IMG/VR virus record: IMGVR_UViG_3300043438_001221
Strand: one strand, 5' to 3'
Length of the DNA stretch: 64,000 nt
Source of the DNA: a virus
The position numbers and the translations under genes are program-made. Shown here one piece after another: positions 12,115-49,258 of the stretch. The first letter of the stretch is position 1. Each line of letters begins with the position of its first letter. The notes under the pieces are model-generated. The model was given only the letters and a program-made list of their open reading frames with translations, was not told the origin of the DNA and searched no databases.

Positions 12115-12513
12115 CTAGGATTCTTGCATTTGTTTCAATAATAAAATATTTTTTATATCTTGGGATATAAAAGTAATCACGCTTACTACCCTATCGAGGT
12201 ATTCAACCATATACTCGATTTCCTTGATCTTCTGGTTGATGTTCTCCAGCGATGGAGTCTTGTCCAGATCGTCCATCACTTGCTTGTTGAGAGCCACAGG
12301 AGACTCTTCCATCAGCTTCTTCTGTAGGGTGTGTTTGGTAGCTGCCTTGAGCTTGTAGAGCTTGTCCTTCTCGATCTTCGCATCAATCAGACGGCATACC
12401 CAGAAATGCTTCTCTGCGGGAACACGCTTAATCACGGATTCGAGTGAAAAGTCGTCAATGTGAACGAACTCTTCAAATTGTGCTTGGTATTTTTTAATTA
12501 ATTCTAAACTCAT
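12115..12513 (-). CDS. uvsY: UvsY-like recombination mediator
   Basis: 132-aa helical protein (IDDFSL..VIKRVPAEKHFW...YLDRVV...DIKNI) upstream of uvsW; the ORF-track start overlaps another gene and was shortened. Confidence 0.7.
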   Translation of the reverse strand: MSLELIKKYQAQFEEFVHIDDFSLESVIKRVPAEKHFWVCRLIDAKIEKDKLYKLKAATKHTLQKKLMEESPVALNKQVMDDLDKTPSLENINQKIKEIEYMVEYLDRVVSVITFISQDIKNILLLKQMQES

Positions 12514-12517
12514 AATT

Positions 12518-12871
12518 TTACATGAAAGCTCCCCACTTGATTTGGCTTGCGGCATCTTCCACAAATTTTTTAATAACATCTCCATGACATTTATTAGGAG
12601 CGCAATAACAGACAAGATTTGTATCCTTATCATCCAATTCCCTATCAACCAATTCTTTAATAACTTTGTTAATCGCAGCATCGTTGAAATAAGAATACTC
12701 CAAATATTTATTATATCCTTCAATCGCTTCTTCCACTGTGTCCACCTTATACAGAGCTTGGGGATGATTGGATTCCTTGTGGTGATAAGGATTGCCCATG
12801 ACGCTACCGCGCCCAATGTAGAAATCATCGGGAGTTGGTTTATGTGTCTTTTTGTCCACCACTCGTATCAT
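12518..12871 (-). CDS. DUF4326-like protein
   Basis: YIGRGSVMGNPY and LVCYCAPNKCHGDVI motifs. Confidence 0.8.
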   Translation of the reverse strand: MIRVVDKKTHKPTPDDFYIGRGSVMGNPYHHKESNHPQALYKVDTVEEAIEGYNKYLEYSYFNDAAINKVIKELVDRELDDKDTNLVCYCAPNKCHGDVIKKFVEDAASQIKWGAFM

Positions 12872-12886
12872 TTACTAAATAATAAC

Positions 12887-13132
12887 ATGAACCAACCTTT
12901 TGTCAATGATAAGTTTGAAATTGCCAACATTTATCAACAGATGTTGAACGAAGACATGACAAGCGGAGGTGCGTTTGGGGGTGATATTGCTGGTCATGCG
13001 GGAATGGAGAACACGGATTGGTTTGCTCCGGGAGATGCCAGAAATCCTTATTCATTGGGAATCACTACGAGAAATGGTGCTTTGAAAAAGAAAAAGGGTA
13101 AAAAACGTGTGAAGAAAAAAGCTAGAGTTTGA
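12887..13132 (+). CDS. small late protein: gp23 N-arm-like segment plus basic tail
   Basis: TAAATA-N5-ATG; SGGAFG...NTDWFAPGDARNP matches gp23 SGGVFG...NSDSYATGDARLP; ends KKKKGKKRVKKKARV. Confidence 0.7.
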   Translation: MNQPFVNDKFEIANIYQQMLNEDMTSGGAFGGDIAGHAGMENTDWFAPGDARNPYSLGITTRNGALKKKKGKKRVKKKARV

Positions 13133-13138
13133 AAATAA

Positions 13139-14068
13139 TCAAGATTCTTTAATTCTTTTTCTAGCAATTTCACAATATTCAGGATTTAAATCAAATCCAA
13201 TATAATTCATACCAAGTCTTTTCGCCACTATACCTGTGGTTCCCGATCCCATGAAAAAATCAAGGACAACGCCCTTTTCTGGACATCCACTTTTCAACAT
13301 TCTCTCCACCAATTCTTCGGGAAACGTTGCGGTGTGAACCGATTTATTGGGTTTGGTGTTGATTTTCCACACTGCTCTCATGGATCGTCCTCCTCTTTTC
13401 TTCATGGATTCTAAAATCCTTCGTTTGGTGTCACTTGGATTTTGAGCATTTGATGATTCATAATCTTTGGTTGCTTCTCCCGTGTAAATCTCATCGGGAT
13501 TGGAAGCGTTTGCAAATGGTTCAATTTGTTGATTGAAGAAATATTTTTTATTTTTCGTAAACATGAAGATCGTTTCAAAATCAACTGTAAATCGATCTGT
13601 GACACTTTGGGGGAGCGCATTCCCTTTATGCCAAACGATATTATTTCTCAATAACCATCCTCTGTTCTGCATCTCAATGGCAAAACGAAATGGTATCAAA
13701 GCCAATTGTTTTTGTTTTCTCCAACCTCCTAATTTTTCCTTTGGTTTTTCTGCGAACTTAAATGATTCCTTTTTGGTGTTTTCCTTTCCTTTCCACACAC
13801 CTTTACCACTTCCAAGGTAAGTGTCTCCAAGATTTACGAACACGACACCATCATCTTTCAAAACACGATAGACTTCATCATAGTAATCACATAATTGATT
13901 TACAAATTCTTCTGGTGTCTCCGCACATCCAAATTCTTTAGGGTCATCTTCTGTGTATTTTCTCGTGTTTAGGTAGGGTGGAGACGAAACACAACAATTG
14001 ATAGATTTTGACGGAAGATTCTTCAATCCTTTCAAAGAATCAACATTTTCGATATAATTTACGTTCAT
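13139..14068 (-). CDS. DNA methyltransferase, beta class (probably N4-cytosine)
   Basis: SPPY catalytic motif N-terminal, HTATFP, DFFMGSGTT SAM motif C-terminal. Confidence 0.9.
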   Translation of the reverse strand: MNVNYIENVDSLKGLKNLPSKSINCCVSSPPYLNTRKYTEDDPKEFGCAETPEEFVNQLCDYYDEVYRVLKDDGVVFVNLGDTYLGSGKGVWKGKENTKKESFKFAEKPKEKLGGWRKQKQLALIPFRFAIEMQNRGWLLRNNIVWHKGNALPQSVTDRFTVDFETIFMFTKNKKYFFNQQIEPFANASNPDEIYTGEATKDYESSNAQNPSDTKRRILESMKKRGGRSMRAVWKINTKPNKSVHTATFPEELVERMLKSGCPEKGVVLDFFMGSGTTGIVAKRLGMNYIGFDLNPEYCEIARKRIKES

Positions 14069-14460: not shown

Positions 14461-14925
14461 ATGGAAAAAAATTCAGAAATCCCCCAAACCACATGGAAAA
14501 ATTTCCCAACCGATACGGAAGGTGTTATGGGATTTGTTTATCTCATTCGCAACAATCATCCAGATGCCACTCGGAAATACTACATTGGTAAGAAACAGCT
14601 TCTCAAGCGTGTGAAGCGCAAACCATTGAAAGGTAAGACACGCAATCGCATTTCATTTGTGGACAACGATGTGGAGAAGTATTGGGGATCGTCCAAGGAA
14701 TTGCTATCAGATATTGAGAAATACGGGATTGAGCATTTTTCAAGGGAAGTGATAGAGGTATGCCACTCAAAATTTCATATGACATACAGTGAGCTTCTTT
14801 GGCAGATCAAATGTAATGCTTTATTGGATCAAAGATTCTACAATGGCATTCTAAATTGTCGCATTGGGGTAATTCCGAAAGGATTTGTTGACATTGAGCG
14901 TGATCCTGATACACTTGGGTTATGA
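14461..14925 (+). CDS. GIY-YIG family endonuclease (Seg-like)
   Basis: GFVYLI...YYIGKKQ, YWGSS, FSREVI, FYNG. Confidence 0.8.
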   Translation: MEKNSEIPQTTWKNFPTDTEGVMGFVYLIRNNHPDATRKYYIGKKQLLKRVKRKPLKGKTRNRISFVDNDVEKYWGSSKELLSDIEKYGIEHFSREVIEVCHSKFHMTYSELLWQIKCNALLDQRFYNGILNCRIGVIPKGFVDIERDPDTLGL

Positions 14926-15631: not shown

Positions 15632-16069
15632 ATGAGCAAATTTCTTGAGATTCTTGAACAACACGATCCTTCCAACCAATCCAAGATGGATGCAGCATTT
15701 CAGGCGAAATTCTTCCTATATGAACAGGAAGTCCCATTCAGTTCAAAGGGTTCCCAAATTATCCTTCATGCTGAACGGGGTGATATCATTTTAGAAGCTG
15801 TGGGTATGCAAGCCCGACAAGTGGCGGATGCTGAAGAGGACGAGTCTTCTTATGACATTGATTCCGAAGTTGAAAAGCTTGGTGCCAAAGCGATGAAAGG
15901 GATACCGGGGTGGTTGGGTAAGCACACCACTAGCGCACAAAAAGCGAAAGCAGCAGCACGAAAACGTGAAAAGGTTGCTGGAAAAGCAGTGGACGCTTAT
16001 ATGAAAAATACTAAAAGTTTGGAAGATTCCATTAAAAATGCTGAAACTAGAACATATAATGTCCATTAA
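15632..16069 (+). CDS. putative internal head protein
   Basis: TAAATA-N5-ATG; leader MSKFLEILE resembles a T4 capsid-targeting sequence. Confidence 0.6.
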   Translation: MSKFLEILEQHDPSNQSKMDAAFQAKFFLYEQEVPFSSKGSQIILHAERGDIILEAVGMQARQVADAEEDESSYDIDSEVEKLGAKAMKGIPGWLGKHTTSAQKAKAAARKREKVAGKAVDAYMKNTKSLEDSIKNAETRTYNVH

Positions 16070-31909: not shown

Positions 31910-31942
31910 TGTATTTATGAGGATGTGGCATTAAGTAATAAT

Positions 31943-33562
31943 ATGCCGAACAAAATAAATACCGAAATTTTCATAGAAAGGTCGAAAAATATACACGGCG
32001 ATAGATATCAATATAATTGTTCGGAATATATAAATAGCCAAACGAAAATAAGCGTGCGATGCCCGATCCATGGTATTTTCACTCAAAAACCACAAGACCA
32101 TATGAATGGGAGGGGTTGTGAAAAATGTGGGAAATTGATATGGGAAAATAAAGATAATCTCGAAAAAAGGTTTAATATTTTTGCTGAAAATGCGAATAGA
32201 ATACACAATTTTAGATATAAATATATTTTAGAGTCGTATAATGGTACGCATAGAAAGGGTGATATTATTTGTCCAATACATGGAAAATTTACTCAATTAT
32301 TAACAAATCATCTTAGCGGATCAGGTTGTGTTAAGTGTAGTAAAGAATCCTATAGAAATAAAAGAACATTCACCGATAAAATTTTTACAGAAAAAGCCAT
32401 TGAAAAACACGGCAATTTTTATAATTATTCTTTAATTAATTACACAGATTCCCAATCTAAATTAGAAATTATTTGTCCAATACATGGCAAATTTACACAG
32501 AAAGCAAATGCACATTTAAACGGTGCTGGGTGTGGGAAATGTGGAAAAATTAAAAAATCTAACAATAAAAGTAAAAATTATGATTGGTATGCCAAATGTG
32601 TCAAATCACATGGAAATAAATATAATTATTCTATGGTGGATTATGTGAAAAACACGTCCCCCGTTAAAATTATTTGCCATAAACATGGAATGTTTATGCA
32701 GACTTTACATAGTCATATAAAAGGTCGGGGGTGTCCTTCATGCGGAGTGACAAATTCCGATATGGAAAACTTTGTGGAAGAAGTGTTGAAAGATAATTCA
32801 ATTGATTATGTTAAAAATGATTGGAGCGTTCTCAAAAATTTGGAGTTAGATTTTTATATACCAAGTATGAAAATTGCGATTGAGTGTAATGGTAATTACT
32901 GGCATTCTGAGACATCTGGTAATAAAGATAAAGATTATCATCTTGATAAAACAGAAAAATGCCTAGGTGTCGGTATTAAATTATTACACATTTTTGAAGA
33001 TGAGTATATAGAGAAAAGGGAAATAATTAAATGTAAAATATTAAACGTTTTAAATTTAACCAAATATAAAATTTGGGCTGAAGAATGTTCTATTGAACGG
33101 ATATCTGAAGATATTAAAGATAAATTTTTAAACAAATATCATATACAAGGAAGTGATAAATCTGATTACATGTATGGACTATTCTATCGAGATAGAATCG
33201 TTGCGGTTATGACGTTTTGTGGTGCAAGTAATTCAAAAAATAGAGTATTTGATTTTTCTAGATATTCATCATTGGGGAATTTTGATATTGTTGGTGGTGT
33301 TGATAAGTTATTAACATTTTTTAAAGTGGTGACAAACCCATCAAAAATTATTTTGAGTGTGGATAGGAGATTTTCAGACGGTGATCTTTATGAAAAAATT
33401 GGATTTGAAAGAGTTTCCACCACACCACCCGATTATTGGTATCTAATTAGAAATGGTAATTACTTCACTAGAAAATATAAATCGGAATTGGATAATATGA
33501 AAACCTACAATTTTGATAGAATATGGGACTGTGGTATGATTAATTATGAGATGTTTTGTTGA
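31943..33562 (+). mobile_element. free-standing homing endonuclease with four Zn-binding CxxHG repeats (DUF723-like) and a PD-(D/E)xK domain
   Basis: Four repeats C(P/H)xHGxFxQxxxxHxxGxGCxxC, then ELDFYIP..IAIECNGNYWH and RIWDCG; AT-rich; TAAGTA-N5-ATG. Confidence 0.82.
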
Positions 33563-33611
33563 AAAAGGAGTTAAATTAGTAGATTTTACATTATTAAGCA
33601 TAAATACAAAT

Positions 33612-34274
33612 ATGCTTAAATTAAAGTTGATTGCTGAAAATCCTGATGTGTTTGATAACTTTGAAGTTATTGAAGAACAATCAAACAGAAACAGTGCATC
33701 CAACCTATATGTGAAAGGTCCGTTTATAGGCTGCAACGCCGTTAATAAAAATAGGCGTATGTATAAATTGGACGACACTAGAACAGAAGTCCAACGATAT
33801 GTTAATGAAATGGTCATGCCGGGACGCGCCATGGGAGAACTCAATCACCCATCCAGTGCTGATGTAAATCTTGAAAGGGCTTGCCATTTGGTTACGGAAC
33901 TATCGGAAGTTGATGATTATTTCATCGGTAAAGCAAAAGTTCTTTCAACACCAACGGGTCAAATCCTCCGTTCTCTCATCAACGATGGGGTCAAGATCGG
34001 AATGTCCACCCGTGCGCTTGGTCAATTGATGGAAAATCGTGATTACAACGTTGTTCAGAATATGCACTTGGTAGCCATTGATGCTGTTGCTGATCCATCC
34101 TATCCAAAGGCTTTCGTTAATGGGATTTTGGAAAGCAAGACTTTTGTTCTGGATCAGGACGGTTCATTTGAAGAGATGTATGAAAATTTTGGAAACGCTC
34201 TCAAAACCCTACCCAAACATGACACCGATAATTATCTTCGCGCACAGATCATAAAATTTATCAATTCAATCTAA
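33612..34274 (+). CDS. 21: prohead core protease gp21
   Basis: NKNRRMY, RAMGELNHP, GKAKVLSTPTG, GMSTRALG, DAVADPS; start from TAAATA-N5-ATG. Confidence 0.95.
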   Translation: MLKLKLIAENPDVFDNFEVIEEQSNRNSASNLYVKGPFIGCNAVNKNRRMYKLDDTRTEVQRYVNEMVMPGRAMGELNHPSSADVNLERACHLVTELSEVDDYFIGKAKVLSTPTGQILRSLINDGVKIGMSTRALGQLMENRDYNVVQNMHLVAIDAVADPSYPKAFVNGILESKTFVLDQDGSFEEMYENFGNALKTLPKHDTDNYLRAQIIKFINSI

Positions 34275-34282
34275 ATAATATC

Positions 34283-34660
34283 ATGGGTAAAACATATAAA
34301 GATTTGAAGAAACAGGGTAAGCATGTTTTTGATGGACCGAAGGTGAAGCAGCGCAAGCATTTCGCCCCGGCAACCAAAACGGAAAGGCCAAAAAAAGGCA
34401 AGGGATCGTATGATCGTGGGGAAGCTTTTGATGAGGATGAAGAAAAAAAGGATTGTTGGGATGGTTATGAAAAGAAAGGCACCAAGAAGAAGGGTGGAAA
34501 GACCGTCAACAATTGTGTGAAGGAATCCACCAATCTATCCAAATTCATTGAGGCTATCATGACCAATAATCATGCGGAAGCCCACAAACATCTCAAACAG
34601 GCGGTGAACGACAAAATCCAGAACCGAATTGCCCAAGAAATCGACAATCCTTTGTTCTGA
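34283..34660 (+). CDS. prohead-core-like small protein with N-terminal ArfA-like motif
   Basis: ERPKKGKGSYDR, then CWDGY..G.KK.GG..VNNCV, then a helical C-terminus; lies between gp21 and gp22. Confidence 0.6.
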   Translation: MGKTYKDLKKQGKHVFDGPKVKQRKHFAPATKTERPKKGKGSYDRGEAFDEDEEKKDCWDGYEKKGTKKKGGKTVNNCVKESTNLSKFIEAIMTNNHAEAHKHLKQAVNDKIQNRIAQEIDNPLF

Positions 34661-34697
34661 TTTTCAAAAAATTCATACTGAATCTCTAAATAATAAT

Positions 34698-35585
34698 ATG
34701 AAGAAAAAAAGCACGAACCTTTTCTCGGAAGACATCCAAAAAAGCCTTGGACTCAGCGACGAATCCGTAAAAGCGATTCAAGAATCCCTTGAATCCAAGA
34801 TTGATCTAGCAGTAGAAGCAGCCCTTTTGGAACAGGATGAAGTATATGCATCCAAGCTCCAAGCTGCGTTTGTATCCGTTGACAAGGATCGCACTCTCAA
34901 GATGAAGAAGATCATGGAAGCATTTGACAAGAACGCCACCGCAAAGCTCGCCAAGGTCATCAAGAAATATGAGCGCGAGCAAAACGGCGATCTTCTCAAG
35001 TTCAAGAAACAACTTACGGAATCCGTTAGTGCTTTCCTCGATGAGTTCATTGAAGAATCCGTTCCAACCAAGGATATCAAGGAAGCGGTTAGAAACAAAA
35101 CCGCCATGAATGTTCTGGAAAATCTTAAAAAGGTTTTTGCAATCGATCTCGCTGTGATGAAGGAATCCGTTTCCGGTGCAATCGTGGAAGGCAAGAGCGA
35201 AATCGACAAGCTCCGCAAGAAAAACGAAGAGCTTGAAAAGAGCATGAAGATTCTTACTGAATCCAAGAACAAGTCGGAAGTCAAGCTTTTCCTTGAAGGA
35301 AAGACTTCCAAATATCCTGAAACAAAGAAGAACTTCGTCAAGAAGGCTCTGGGAGACAAGTCCCTTCAATTCATTCAGGAAAACTTCGATTACACCGTGC
35401 GTCTCTTTGAAAAACAAGAGAAAAAGCAACTGGAAACCATCAAGGAAGATGCGATCCAAAACCGCAAGCACAAGCCCGATTTTGTAAAAGAACAAAAAAT
35501 TGTCACGGAAAAGGTAAATACTAATACGGATGAAGAATCTGATCCTTATGTGTCTGTTATGGATTCCATGACATTCCGTAAGTAA
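34698..35585 (+). CDS. 22: prohead core scaffolding protein gp22
   Basis: Charged coiled-coil protein between gp21 and gp23; ends DPYVSVM; TAAATA-N5-ATG. Confidence 0.85.
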   Translation: MKKKSTNLFSEDIQKSLGLSDESVKAIQESLESKIDLAVEAALLEQDEVYASKLQAAFVSVDKDRTLKMKKIMEAFDKNATAKLAKVIKKYEREQNGDLLKFKKQLTESVSAFLDEFIEESVPTKDIKEAVRNKTAMNVLENLKKVFAIDLAVMKESVSGAIVEGKSEIDKLRKKNEELEKSMKILTESKNKSEVKLFLEGKTSKYPETKKNFVKKALGDKSLQFIQENFDYTVRLFEKQEKKQLETIKEDAIQNRKHKPDFVKEQKIVTEKVNTNTDEESDPYVSVMDSMTFRK

Positions 35586-35648: not shown

Positions 35649-37100
35649 ATGAATAATCTACCATCTACTGATATCCAAGGCTCCAAGATGCAACAAGCAG
35701 TTGCCAAGTGGCGTAAGGTTCTCGACTATAGCTCGGACTCGATCCCAGCTATTCGGAACGAACACGTTTACAAGACGACTGCCATGCTTCTGGAAAACCA
35801 AGAACAGTGGTGCTACCAAGAATCGAATACTGCTGCCTCCGGTGGTGTGTTCGGTGCAACGACTTCCATTGGCAACGGTATCGCTAACAGCGACTCCTAT
35901 GCTACTGGCGATGCTCGTCTGCCAAAGATTCTGATTCCTATGATTCGGCGTACTTTCCCAGAACTGATCTCTAACGAAATCGTGGGTGTTCAACCCATGG
36001 GTGGTCCAGTCGGACTTGCCTTCGCTCTCCGTTATGCTTATCAAGGTGATACCCTTGGTACTGATGGAATCGACGGTAAATCCTTCACCTCCACCTCTCG
36101 TGGTAATGGAACCCAAAACTACTCCGGTGGTGATGGACTCCCCGCCGACGAACTTGGTTATCAGCTTCTTGACACACGTTTCACTGGCACATCTGCTGCG
36201 TTCCTTTCCGGTCATGCCGAATGGACGTTTGCAGACCAAGACAAAGGTATTGCAGAACTCCTGAGTAACTACGAACTGACGGGTAAAATCCCTCAGATCG
36301 AACTCAAGTTCGAAAAGACCGCTGTTGAGGCCGGAACACGTAGGCTCGCTACCCGCTGGTCGGTTGAGTTGGAACAAGACATCAAAAACATGAACGGTAT
36401 CGATATCGATGGAGAACTTACGAATGCTATGTCGTATGAAATCCAAGCCGAAATCGACCGCGAAGTTGTGATGCGTATGATCCAAACCGCCTTCAATGCT
36501 GGTGCTGGCGCAGGTTTCTCCATCTGGAGTCCTGTTAGTGCGGATGGACGTTGGACTGCTGAAAGGAATCTTACCTTCTATCAACGCCTTATTATCGAAA
36601 GTGGTCGTATGGCTGCTCGTAACCGTAGAGGTGCCGCTAACTTTGTTATCGCCACTCCCCGCGTTTGCAGCATCCTCGAAATGCTTCCCGACTTTAAGGT
36701 TTACGAAATCAACGGAACCGTTTCGACGGCTGGTGTTGGTATCGCTAAAGTTGGTACTGTTGGTAGCCGCTGGACTGTGTATCGTGATACTAGGACTGAA
36801 GTTCAGAACTCCTCTCTCTACTCGCCTAACTACTACACTGGCCAAACCAGTGGAGTTGAATACGCGCTGTTGGGTTACAAGGGTTCTGAATACTATGATA
36901 CAGGAATAATTTACTGTCCGTATATCCCAATTATGGTGCAACGGACGATTGGCCCAAATGATTTCGCGCCCCGTGTTGGTCTTATGACCCGCTACGGAAT
37001 TGTGAATAACATCTTTGGTGCAAATCTTTATTATCACCTTATCATTGTTAAAGGTCTTGGAACCGCGTTTACGCCCGGATCGGTCAGCACATATTTATAA
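35649..37100 (+). CDS. 23: major capsid protein gp23
   Basis: LLENQ, LIPMIRRTFP, GVQPMGGPVGLAFALR, AEIDREV, YCPYIP, F.PRVGLMTRYG. Confidence 0.97.
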   Translation: MNNLPSTDIQGSKMQQAVAKWRKVLDYSSDSIPAIRNEHVYKTTAMLLENQEQWCYQESNTAASGGVFGATTSIGNGIANSDSYATGDARLPKILIPMIRRTFPELISNEIVGVQPMGGPVGLAFALRYAYQGDTLGTDGIDGKSFTSTSRGNGTQNYSGGDGLPADELGYQLLDTRFTGTSAAFLSGHAEWTFADQDKGIAELLSNYELTGKIPQIELKFEKTAVEAGTRRLATRWSVELEQDIKNMNGIDIDGELTNAMSYEIQAEIDREVVMRMIQTAFNAGAGAGFSIWSPVSADGRWTAERNLTFYQRLIIESGRMAARNRRGAANFVIATPRVCSILEMLPDFKVYEINGTVSTAGVGIAKVGTVGSRWTVYRDTRTEVQNSSLYSPNYYTGQTSGVEYALLGYKGSEYYDTGIIYCPYIPIMVQRTIGPNDFAPRVGLMTRYGIVNNIFGANLYYHLIIVKGLGTAFTPGSVSTYL

Positions 37101-47443: not shown

Positions 47444-49258
47444 ATGGCGGGAATAGGAAGTTCAACAACACCATCTTCAAACAAACAATATCAAGGGAGC
47501 GATGGTAAGGGTTCCACTTTTGATAGGAACATGCAATCCTATTTGAAGAATCGTGGGAATTTCATTGAGAAAACTCCTGACGAAGCGAAGAATACAAAAT
47601 ATAAATATTTCCAAAAAATTGGGTTACGCAGACCTGAAGCGATTGCTCGCAATTCCGTAGCTCTCAATAACGACTGGAACAACACGGCATTTTCCGCCAT
47701 CTACCAAGACAAGTCCTTTACGGATTTGATGTATTCCCAAGCTTCGGAGGAAAAACCCGGACGTTTGCGGGACTATCGCATGATTGCCGCTTACTCCGAA
47801 GTTGCGGATGCTCTGGATGAGATTTGTGATGAGACAATCAATGTTGATGAGAACGGAGAGATTGTAACTCTGGAAATCCGCAACACCGATCTGGAATCGG
47901 AAAAGAAGGAAGAGATTGAGAAGGAATTCTCCCGTTTCGTCGCTATGATGGAACTGGAAGACAATGGTTGGAATTATTTTCGCCAACTCATGATCGAGGG
48001 GGAACTGTTTTTCGAATTGATTTTAAAAGAGGATTATATTAAACAAGGGGTTGTCGCCATCAAGAACCTTCCTGCTGAACAATTTGATCCTGTATATGAC
48101 AATATACAAACGATGCAGATCAAAGCGTTCATTTACAAAAAGCCGATTTTCTCCACTGTTGATAATAAAAAGGTGGAACGCTACGAATACATTCCCTTTG
48201 AGCAAAACCAAGTCCTCTATGTGAATAGTGGGCAATACAACGAAACCAAGGATTTCATCATCCCTTTCATTGAGAATTGCCGCAGAGCTTACAGACAGCT
48301 TTCCATGATTGAGGATTCTGTGGTGATCCACAGAATGGTTCACGCTCCCCTACGCTTCCTCTTCAATGTGGATGTGGGTAGATTACCTGTTCCTCAAGCT
48401 GAAGCCTATCTACGCAAGCTACAGAGCCAATACTGGTCAACCAAAACCTTTGACATCGACCAAGGGGATATTGTCAAGAAATACGCACCCCAATCAACTC
48501 TTGATTCGTTCTGGTTCGCCAAGAGACAGGGAATGGAAGCAACGACTGTCGAAACATTCGGGGGTCAAATGTCTGATGGTAACATGGATGTTCTAGATTG
48601 GTTCATCAAGAAACTCTATCGCTCCCTCAAAACACCAACTTCCCGTTTGAATGATGAGACGGGTTATAACGATGGAACGGAGATGCTTCGGGAAGAACTG
48701 AAGTTCGCCAAGATGATCATCCGTCAGCAACAACGTTTTGCCCAAGGTATCAAGAGAGCGTTTATCACACATCTCAAGTTCAAGGACATGTTTGATGAAT
48801 GGGATTTGTTCGATGACAATATCCGTGTGGAATTCAATGTTCCCACGAATTTCTATGACATGCGGGAGAGTCAGAAGCTCAACCTCAAGATCGAGACTTT
48901 CAATAATATTACGGGCAATGAAATGGTTTCCACGATCTATGCCATGAAGAAATATCTGGATTGGAAGGATTCCGATATCCTTGCCAACCTACACTTCAAG
49001 AAGGTGGAAGCGGAACATATGTTTGAAATTGAGCAAATTCGGTCATCAGGCCCCGAGTGGCGCAATCTTTTAGCTCAACAAGCTGAAGGTGGAGAAGGTG
49101 GTGATATGGGTGGTCTTGGTGGCGGTTCCAGTGGAAGCGGCGGCGTGCCAGATTTCGGAGGAGGCCCAGCCGCTATTGGAGGTGATGACATTGGGGTGGA
49201 ACCCGATCAAGCAGAAACCCCGGAAGCTCCGTCCAATGAACCAGAGATGGGTGTCTAA
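47444..49258 (+). CDS. 20: portal vertex protein gp20
   Basis: YRMIA.YSEV..ALDEI, QLSMIEDSVVIHRMVHAP.RFLFNVDVG.LP..AE.YL, LYRSLK.P.SRL, REELKF.K. Confidence 0.95.
   Translation: MAGIGSSTTPSSNKQYQGSDGKGSTFDRNMQSYLKNRGNFIEKTPDEAKNTKYKYFQKIGLRRPEAIARNSVALNNDWNNTAFSAIYQDKSFTDLMYSQASEEKPGRLRDYRMIAAYSEVADALDEICDETINVDENGEIVTLEIRNTDLESEKKEEIEKEFSRFVAMMELEDNGWNYFRQLMIEGELFFELILKEDYIKQGVVAIKNLPAEQFDPVYDNIQTMQIKAFIYKKPIFSTVDNKKVERYEYIPFEQNQVLYVNSGQYNETKDFIIPFIENCRRAYRQLSMIEDSVVIHRMVHAPLRFLFNVDVGRLPVPQAEAYLRKLQSQYWSTKTFDIDQGDIVKKYAPQSTLDSFWFAKRQGMEATTVETFGGQMSDGNMDVLDWFIKKLYRSLKTPTSRLNDETGYNDGTEMLREELKFAKMIIRQQQRFAQGIKRAFITHLKFKDMFDEWDLFDDNIRVEFNVPTNFYDMRESQKLNLKIETFNNITGNEMVSTIYAMKKYLDWKDSDILANLHFKKVEAEHMFEIEQIRSSGPEWRNLLAQQAEGGEGGDMGGLGGGSSGSGGVPDFGGGPAAIGGDDIGVEPDQAETPEAPSNEPEMGV

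Follow-up and report, generated by a model that had tools for sequence, protein, structure and literature searches.

Why should a phage keep a small separate gene which repeats one piece of its own major capsid protein? The question is raised by an 81-codon gene, which we call P0001, in a 64,000 nt stretch of the virus record IMGVR_UViG_3300043438_001221. We refer to this whole stretch as the window. It is part of the genome of an uncultured, distant T4-like myophage. Among PDB chains, the gp23 encoded in the window matches those of T4 gp23 (E 2e-31), and its closest cultured relatives are cyanophages, with about 33% identity. Among other proteins, the window also encodes a gp15-like protein and homologues of UvsW and UvsY. 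The features which are relevant to the question are listed in Table 1. We should also mention a 545 amino acid open reading frame (31925-33562, plus strand) with matches to DUF723 and to restriction endonuclease-like proteins, which is found immediately 5' of the gp21-gp22-gp23 head block.

Table 1. Position of P0001, its parts, its neighbours and the capsid-related genes in the window. Empty cells: not given.
Feature	Position	Strand	Description
P0001 gene	12887-13132	+	capsid-arm-like basic protein, 81 aa
P0001 leader, aa 1-22	12887..12952	+	predicted helix 4-21, ends L20-N21-E22
P0001 arm segment, aa 20-58	12944..13060	+	homologous to gp23 residues 56-96; GGAFG ... TDWFAPGDARNP..LG
P0001 K/R tail, aa 67-81	13085..13129	+	12 K/R in 15 residues, C-terminal
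Late-promoter-like box	12875..12881	+	CTAAATA, 5 nt before the P0001 ATG
Sigma-70-like promoter	12879..12906	-	TTGACA-16-TATTAT, 11/12, TG-extended; consensus match only
DUF4326 gene	12518-12871	-	divergent neighbour of the P0001 gene
uvsY-like gene	12115-12828	-	C-terminal part of the ORF only; 237 aa; PHROG E 3e-3
N6/N4 DNA methylase	13139-14068	-	other neighbour of the P0001 gene
gp21 prohead protease homologue	33546-34274	+	presumed processing enzyme; Pfam Peptidase_S77, E 4.7e-27
gp23 major capsid protein	35649-37100	+	483 aa; Pfam PF07068 (Gp23), E 7.7e-84
gp23 copied segment, aa 56-96	35814..35936	+	predicted maturation site YQE/S, then N-arm up to the invariant LIPMIRR block
gp20 portal	47444-49258		

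An earlier note on this DNA had described the gene as a small open reading frame whose leader ends in glutamic acid and whose other end is a basic tail, with a nearly gapless copy of the capsid arm between them. The frame, the leader (..MLNE, where the last residue is E22) and the tail are present as described, and the alignment is recovered by several methods. In BLASTP, residues 26-54 of P0001 match residues 64-92 of gp23 without gaps, with 14 of 29 positions identical (E 3e-6). The local alignment score is 67, while shuffled sequences give 30.4 +/- 4.8 (z 7.6), and none of 5000 shuffles reaches the real score; the match is significant. When the first 110 residues of gp23 are compared by tblastn with the six frames of the window, the P0001 frame is the sole non-self match (E 1e-4, the next one being 7.3), and the reverse search gives an E value of 2.7e-4. 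The best non-self match of P0001 among the 335 open frames of at least 60 amino acids in the window is also gp23.

We have also compared a profile of 107 members of the P0001 family with a profile of 39 capsid N-termini. With hhalign, the probability is 98.1% (E 9e-14), and residues 20-58 of P0001 are aligned with residues 56-96 of gp23. This places L-N-E of P0001 on Y-Q-E of gp23, as in the alignment of the earlier note; Y-Q-E in turn aligns with the maturation region of T4. In each of ten other phage contigs, the family profile also picks out the gp23 gene, with E values between 3e-7 and 3e-12. Judged by these alignments, the arm of P0001 is a true homologue of the gp23 arm and begins at the predicted maturation site. 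Alignment to T4 predicts that the gp23 in the window is cleaved after E58; T4 gp23 is cleaved after residue 65 (PMC9546572). The Pfam Gp23 model (PF07068, HK97-type fold) begins at residue 92 of the window gp23, past the copied segment, and no match to this model is found in a Pfam scan of P0001.

The similarity does not extend to the leader, which hhalign does not align with the gp23 propeptide. AF2 predicts a single helix in P0001, from residue 4 to residue 21, the remainder being coil. A different fragment is found in a complete close relative (G001, IMGVR_UViG_3300042544_001590), where a 78 amino acid open reading frame (L044:1402-1638, minus strand) copies the gp23 propeptide. It resembles gp23 residues 11-59 (KWKRVLDY ... 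LMENEE), with 37% identity and an E value of 1.4e-4; with it, a second fragment of the capsid N-terminus is found as a free-standing paralogue. This frame lacks a TAAATA box and overlaps with the stop of the gene before it.

P0001 is a member of a large family. A word-indexed search detects 46 clusters of close homologues, and an exhaustive profile search of 1.84 billion representatives (E <= 1e-3) yields 174 clusters or more (50% identity). With few exceptions, the members have between 55 and 145 amino acids. They have a common plan: a helical leader is followed by [L/I/V]-x-E-[D/E/N]-[M/N/I]-[T/S], a Gly-rich GGVFG, a variable stretch and D.YAPGD.R.P..LG; then there is often a (V/I)QTR.G motif, and finally a run of K/R. 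The P1 residue is E in 102 of 107 members, and P3 is L, I or V in 89 of them. The K/R run is present in the members which we have inspected: its basic character is kept, its sequence is not. Over a core of 58 codons dN/dS is 0.08 (164 pairs, 21 distinct close relatives). P0001 is a real gene under strong purifying selection. The family spans a broad clade of uncultured T4-like phages, whose capsid proteins are down to about 46% identical in the aligned set, and the gene is present in the three complete genomes examined.

Divergent members continue after the K/R run with an IP(I/M)(Q/I)RR(T)F(P) block, sometimes also with ..G(M/V)QGP. These correspond to the next conserved blocks of gp23 (LIPMIRRTFPELI..GVQPMGGP). 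Read against gp23, the basic run is an insertion inside the arm copy in divergent members, and it is the C-terminus in the form found in the window. As far as sequence comparison goes, the family is a previously undescribed set of cut-down paralogues of the N-terminus of T4-type major capsid proteins. Pfam and PHROG scans of P0001 and ten divergent or fused members give no match, except for DUF5661 in some fusions. No match is obtained by tblastn of P0001 and another member (P0217) against 50,697 phage records, a search whose low-complexity filter may mask part of the query. The family profile only finds poly-lysine matches in the PDB, and the ESM Atlas only contributes viral clusters called "hypothetical protein", none of them named. 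In the literature and databases which we have searched, we have found no description of this family or of any free-standing paralogue of a capsid arm.

A scan of IMG/VR with the back-translated YAPGDARxP motif gives 120 loci. They are either capsid proteins of the far-T4 clade or small basic proteins, apart from a few unrelated open reading frames with the short motif alone. We considered whether the arm motif could be a general T4 feature. This can be ruled out: the gp23 of T4 and of cyanophages S-SM1 and Syn9 do not have it, and the GGVFG ... YAPGDAR motif is absent from T4 and cyanophage arms.

Both genes which flank P0001 are on the minus strand, opposite to P0001. The gene has a late-type start box of its own, where the earlier note had seen a late promoter; this box, CTAAATA, agrees with the T4 late consensus TATAAATA at six of eight positions and is not canonical. 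The late promoters of cyanophages are of the type NATAAATA (PMC2984593), and the sequence of the box can be read as a variant of both TATAAATA and NATAAATA. The arrangement TAAATA-N5-ATG is found 17 times in the window, where 1.56 would be expected (11-fold), and none of 100 shuffles reaches this number. It is found at a head gene (34283), at the genes starting at 15632, 16475, 38647, 41364 and 50372, and at internal ATGs of the gp21 open reading frame (33612; box 33601-33614) and the gp22 open reading frame (34629-35585; ATG at 34698). The positions of these sites include 15621, 16464, 33601, 34272, 34687, 38636, 41353, 50361, 51464 (minus strand) and 63242. In the portal gene (47444) the box is at N6, six nt before the ATG. 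No Shine-Dalgarno sequence is visible before the TAAATA-N5-ATG starts in the window. Should the box be the -10 element of a late promoter of the T4 type, the late mRNAs from these starts would have little or no leader. Of 119 family genes on other contigs, 77 have the box no more than 10 nt from their start; this is an upper estimate, as the choice of starts favoured the box. It is kept upstream of family genes in distant lineages whose upstream sequences are otherwise unrelated.

The head-to-head arrangement of uvsY and the family gene is also conserved, in members which are only about 33-39% identical. In the window, the open reading frames at 12115-12828 and 12518-12871, both on the minus strand, overlap in different frames; the true start of uvsY is probably an internal ATG, downstream of the DUF4326 gene. 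The sigma-70-like promoter, a consensus match only, would serve the divergent DUF4326, uvsY and uvsW genes. The late box shares nucleotides with its -10, and codons 4-7 of P0001 contain its -35: an early and a late promoter would be placed back to back on one AT-rich element at the start of P0001. This overlap may be the reason for the conservation of the PFVND codons in close relatives. A SegE-type GIY-YIG homing endonuclease (14461-14925, plus strand) is encoded near P0001, and a gene of the same type is found directly 3' of the family gene in a distant relative (L049:5196-5603).

If the arm copy has a function related to the capsid, does it follow the capsid of its own phage? Both genes, peptide and gp23, have been recovered from 13 genomes. 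In several of them the same variant of the arm is found in the two proteins. For example, GNQFPSQND.AYA.GDAR is common to peptide and capsid in four genomes (G011, G021, G022 and G028), F(N/S)PPG..(S/T).D.YA.GDAR is common to both genes in G013 and G017, and YATGD is common to both in G009. In G017 the context of the cleavage site, NEDNTA, is also present in both peptide and gp23. We have taken seven lineages, with one genome each, and calculated the summed alignment score for all 5040 permutations of peptides and capsids. The true pairing has the highest score of all, with and without the shared 12-residue anchor motif, and six of the seven peptides score best with their own capsid. The homologues track their own gp23, which the earlier note had put forward as a check of its proposal.

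Such a likeness might be due to recent gene conversion, and this can be ruled out: nucleotide identity between peptide and gp23 genes is 0.32-0.58 over the 40-codon segment, and identical residues have the same codon in 41 of 127 cases, against 46.7 expected from codon usage. One ancient duplication, with independent drift of the two copies thereafter, would not make the true pairing the best of 5040. The proteins remain alike in spite of fully randomised synonymous sites, so it is selection at the protein level which keeps the two arms similar, from which we conclude that the binding partner is shared or mutual.

What would the partner be used for? The leader ending in L-N-E, the arm which starts at the aligned cut and the Lys-rich tail lead us to read P0001 as a head protein which docks in the prohead and is trimmed by gp21. 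By analogy with T4, we give an even chance to the proposal that the capsid-like arm of P0001 brings the protein into the prohead, where gp21 cleaves it behind E22 and the rest is kept in the head to bind DNA. The protein would be made late and would join the assembling prohead, where its arm would bind whatever the gp23 arm binds. The protease would cut at the predicted site and remove the 22-residue leader. The mature peptide, with 59 residues, would not leave the head; its basic tail would lie on the packaged DNA, in the manner of the T4 internal proteins, and the peptide may remain anchored to the shell through its arm. Presence in the head, cleavage and DNA binding, that is, everything beyond a late gene homologous to the arm, is what we infer.

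In T4, gp21 cuts after L/I-x-E (PMC9026906). The basic internal proteins and Alt reach the scaffold core through short propeptides at their N-termini, a leader-based targeting which also works on fused cargo (PMC9026906, PMC3012670). Only the lysines of the internal proteins contact the packaged DNA (PMC3012670). P0001 has much in common with T4 IPI, IPII, IPIII and Alt, small Lys-rich late proteins whose leader ends in L/I-x-E and is removed by gp21 (PMC9026906, PMC3012670), a cleavage which in P0001 is predicted. By function, P0001 would be a variant of these protease-processed internal head proteins. There are also differences. Its leader has about 22 amino acids, compared with about 10 in the T4 internal proteins; its retained part bears the capsid-arm copy, which they do not have; and its gene is placed beside uvsY, unlike theirs. 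PHROG scans of P0001 and ten members, and tblastn against the 50,697 phage records, find no similarity to IPI, IPII, IPIII, Alt or a leader of the MKTYQEFIAE type.

The comparison with T4 gp23 itself is also informative. Residues 66-105 of the mature protein, gp23*, which form the arm and N-fist, occupy the same place as the copied segment, directly after the cut and before the MVRR/MIRR block, although P0001 is a free-standing protein of 81 amino acids without the HK97 fold. In the unexpanded head these residues are disordered and point inward, where they probably touch the scaffold core; after expansion they become an external arm and N-fist (PMC9546572). Several facts do not fit well with a peptide inside the head. 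One is the lack of sequence similarity to the T4 internal proteins, another the leader, which does not align with the gp23 propeptide and gives way to whole domains in some members. The presumed docking arm is on the retained side of the cut, unlike the capsid-targeting sequence of T4. The mature T4 arm is on the outer surface (PMC9546572), which suits a role in the capsid lattice at least equally well. Processing of the gp21 type, after L/I-x-E, also has a counter-point in the capsid protein, whose site has Y, F or I at P3, and not L, in most relatives.

Some members of the family are fusions. The arm module is N-terminal to unknown domains in the L059, L088 and L090 types and in P0215 and P0279, and it is C-terminal to other domains in L101, L169 and P0263. 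DUF5661 recurs, either before or after the module (L183, L069, L089, P0187, P0215 and P0299). In some members the leader has been exchanged for whole domains. When fused to other domains, the arm module appears to be a portable head-targeting unit. Taken together with the position of T4 residues 66-105 inside the prohead, the extra domains flanking the module favour prohead docking and processing; they point more to a module of this kind than to a plug in the lattice.

The fusions show other features. In those of the L059 type (L059:421-981 on the minus strand, L107, L147, L161 and P0312), an invariant second L-N-E is found directly after the K/R run, followed by a conserved domain of about 130 amino acids which has no PDB or Pfam match. 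We thought of an ADP-ribosyltransferase cargo, like T4 Alt, and have dropped the idea: the AF2 model of one of these members (204 aa) has a mean pLDDT of 37, and a PDB profile search with the alignment of fusion members finds nothing below E 0.29. The C-terminal domain of L088:1605-2249 (plus strand) and L090:1039-1704 (minus strand) contains (I/L)LDGNHR, reminiscent of ParB/sulfiredoxin-type domains; Pfam gives no match for it at E <= 0.05. In L183:892-1986 (minus strand), from a complete 248-kb contig (G030), the module is internal in a protein of 365 amino acids, and the PMIRRT block is kept after the K run. Several lineages also have a conserved acidic linker after the K run, G.DG(V)FLTGEE.EE.

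A permanent place in the lattice has to be weighed against the head-internal peptide, although the two roles are not mutually exclusive. As in the main idea of the earlier note, the free arm would fill gp23 sites which have no donor, for example around the portal vertex, and an inner basic tail would tie the DNA to the shell. We consider this unlikely. Homology to the arm and co-variation with the cognate capsid are what a mimic which shares a binding site needs. In T4, contacts within and between capsomers are made by the arm and N-fist, and the portal whisker is touched by Met98, a residue of the arm (PMC9546572, PMC7136217). In the gp23 of this clade neither M98 nor the LIPMIRR block varies, and a paralogue of the gp24 type has not been found in the complete relative G001. 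On the other hand, if the pentons are made of gp23 each virion would only offer about five vacant sites, which is little for a gene as conserved and widespread as this one. The P0001 of the window lacks the invariant LIPMIRR-TFPELI block, and bulky domains fused on either side are hard to place in a lattice site. A prediction of the complex of P0001 residues 20-68 with two arm-less gp23 chains (96-483) gave no answer (score 0.00) and bears neither way. A capsid arm supplied in trans is a doubtful proposal of this kind, to which we give the same weight: after the gp21 cut, it would be built into the gp23 lattice, at donor-less positions or beside every arm, and would follow a path from inside to outside with its polylysine tail inside.

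P0001 might instead be a transient regulator of assembly or maturation. It would compete with the gp23 arms for the scaffold or for gp21, as a decoy substrate or timer, and would be degraded or expelled with the core. The cleavage-site context shared by the family and gp23, as in NEDNTA of G017, would suit this role, and so would the late start box in common with gp21 and gp22. The core proteins of T4 are cleaved, and they exit the head (PMC9546572). Nevertheless, the conserved K/R tail would have no obvious role, except to bind acidic core proteins. A single site is conserved, while T4 core proteins are cut into several pieces, and the modular fusions suggest delivery instead. We regard a regulator as rather improbable.

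A still weaker candidate, also taken from the earlier note, is a decoy for a host defence which senses the capsid arm: the sensor would be titrated by a soluble copy of the arm. Such a decoy needs to change together with the arm of its own capsid protein, as is observed. This would leave the conserved L-x-E leader, the basic tail and the fusions unexplained. In addition, the family is nearly universal in the clade, as in the complete genomes mentioned above (three of three), and not patchy like counter-defence genes. We know of no defence system which reads the gp23 arm segment, and the Gol region of T4 sensed by Lit is just downstream, in the block which the P0001 of the window does not have. 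All this makes a decoy very improbable. Finally, a short gene with no domain match and antisense to its neighbours might be suspected of being an over-called open reading frame, or what is left, without function, of a gp23 gene duplicated in part, but the selection data exclude a relic: dN/dS is very low, the plan is conserved in 174 clusters, the start box and uvsY synteny are kept across lineages, and synonymous sites are randomised while the protein remains alike.

Other viruses offer partial parallels to a prohead-docked, trimmed peptide. T4 gp24, the vertex protein, is likewise a paralogue of the major capsid protein in the same phage and is processed by gp21, but it has the complete capsid fold, whereas P0001 only has the arm and a basic tail. 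SaPI1 CpmB mimics the C-terminus of the 80-alpha scaffolding protein and shares its binding site. Like P0001, it is a small copy of a capsid-contacting module of an assembly partner. CpmB, however, is the tool of a parasite against its helper phage and copies the scaffold, while P0001 copies the capsid arm of its own phage. The adenovirus pre-Mu and pVII are short basic peptides which are trimmed by the virion protease and stay with the packaged genome. Virus, protease and sequence are all unrelated and there is no homology to a capsid arm, so this is an analogy only. Decoration or cement proteins like Soc are folded and placed on the outer surface of the capsid, in contrast to P0001, with its single predicted helix, coil and poly-lysine PDB matches. 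The basic tail and the protease site of P0001 point to the interior of the head, unlike Soc-like proteins.

To our knowledge, there is no described case of a phage which keeps a free-standing copy of its capsid arm, held similar by selection alone over long times. If the family is a trimmed peptide inside the head, it shows how far-T4 phages without recognisable internal proteins neutralise or anchor their DNA and, given the natural fusions, it would be a natural portable module for head targeting. If it is a component of the lattice, we would be dealing with a capsid part of a new kind. In the case of an arm supplied in trans, the shell would gain a sequence-independent grip on the genome, and arm and shell would co-evolve through one shared binding site. 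Such a fragment paralogue, co-evolving with the shell, would form a new class among capsid components; the capsids of T4, HK97 and herpesviruses have no described equivalent. Either way, whether peptide or lattice part, the co-varying pairs flag arm residues which are important for an interaction left open by the T4 prohead structures.
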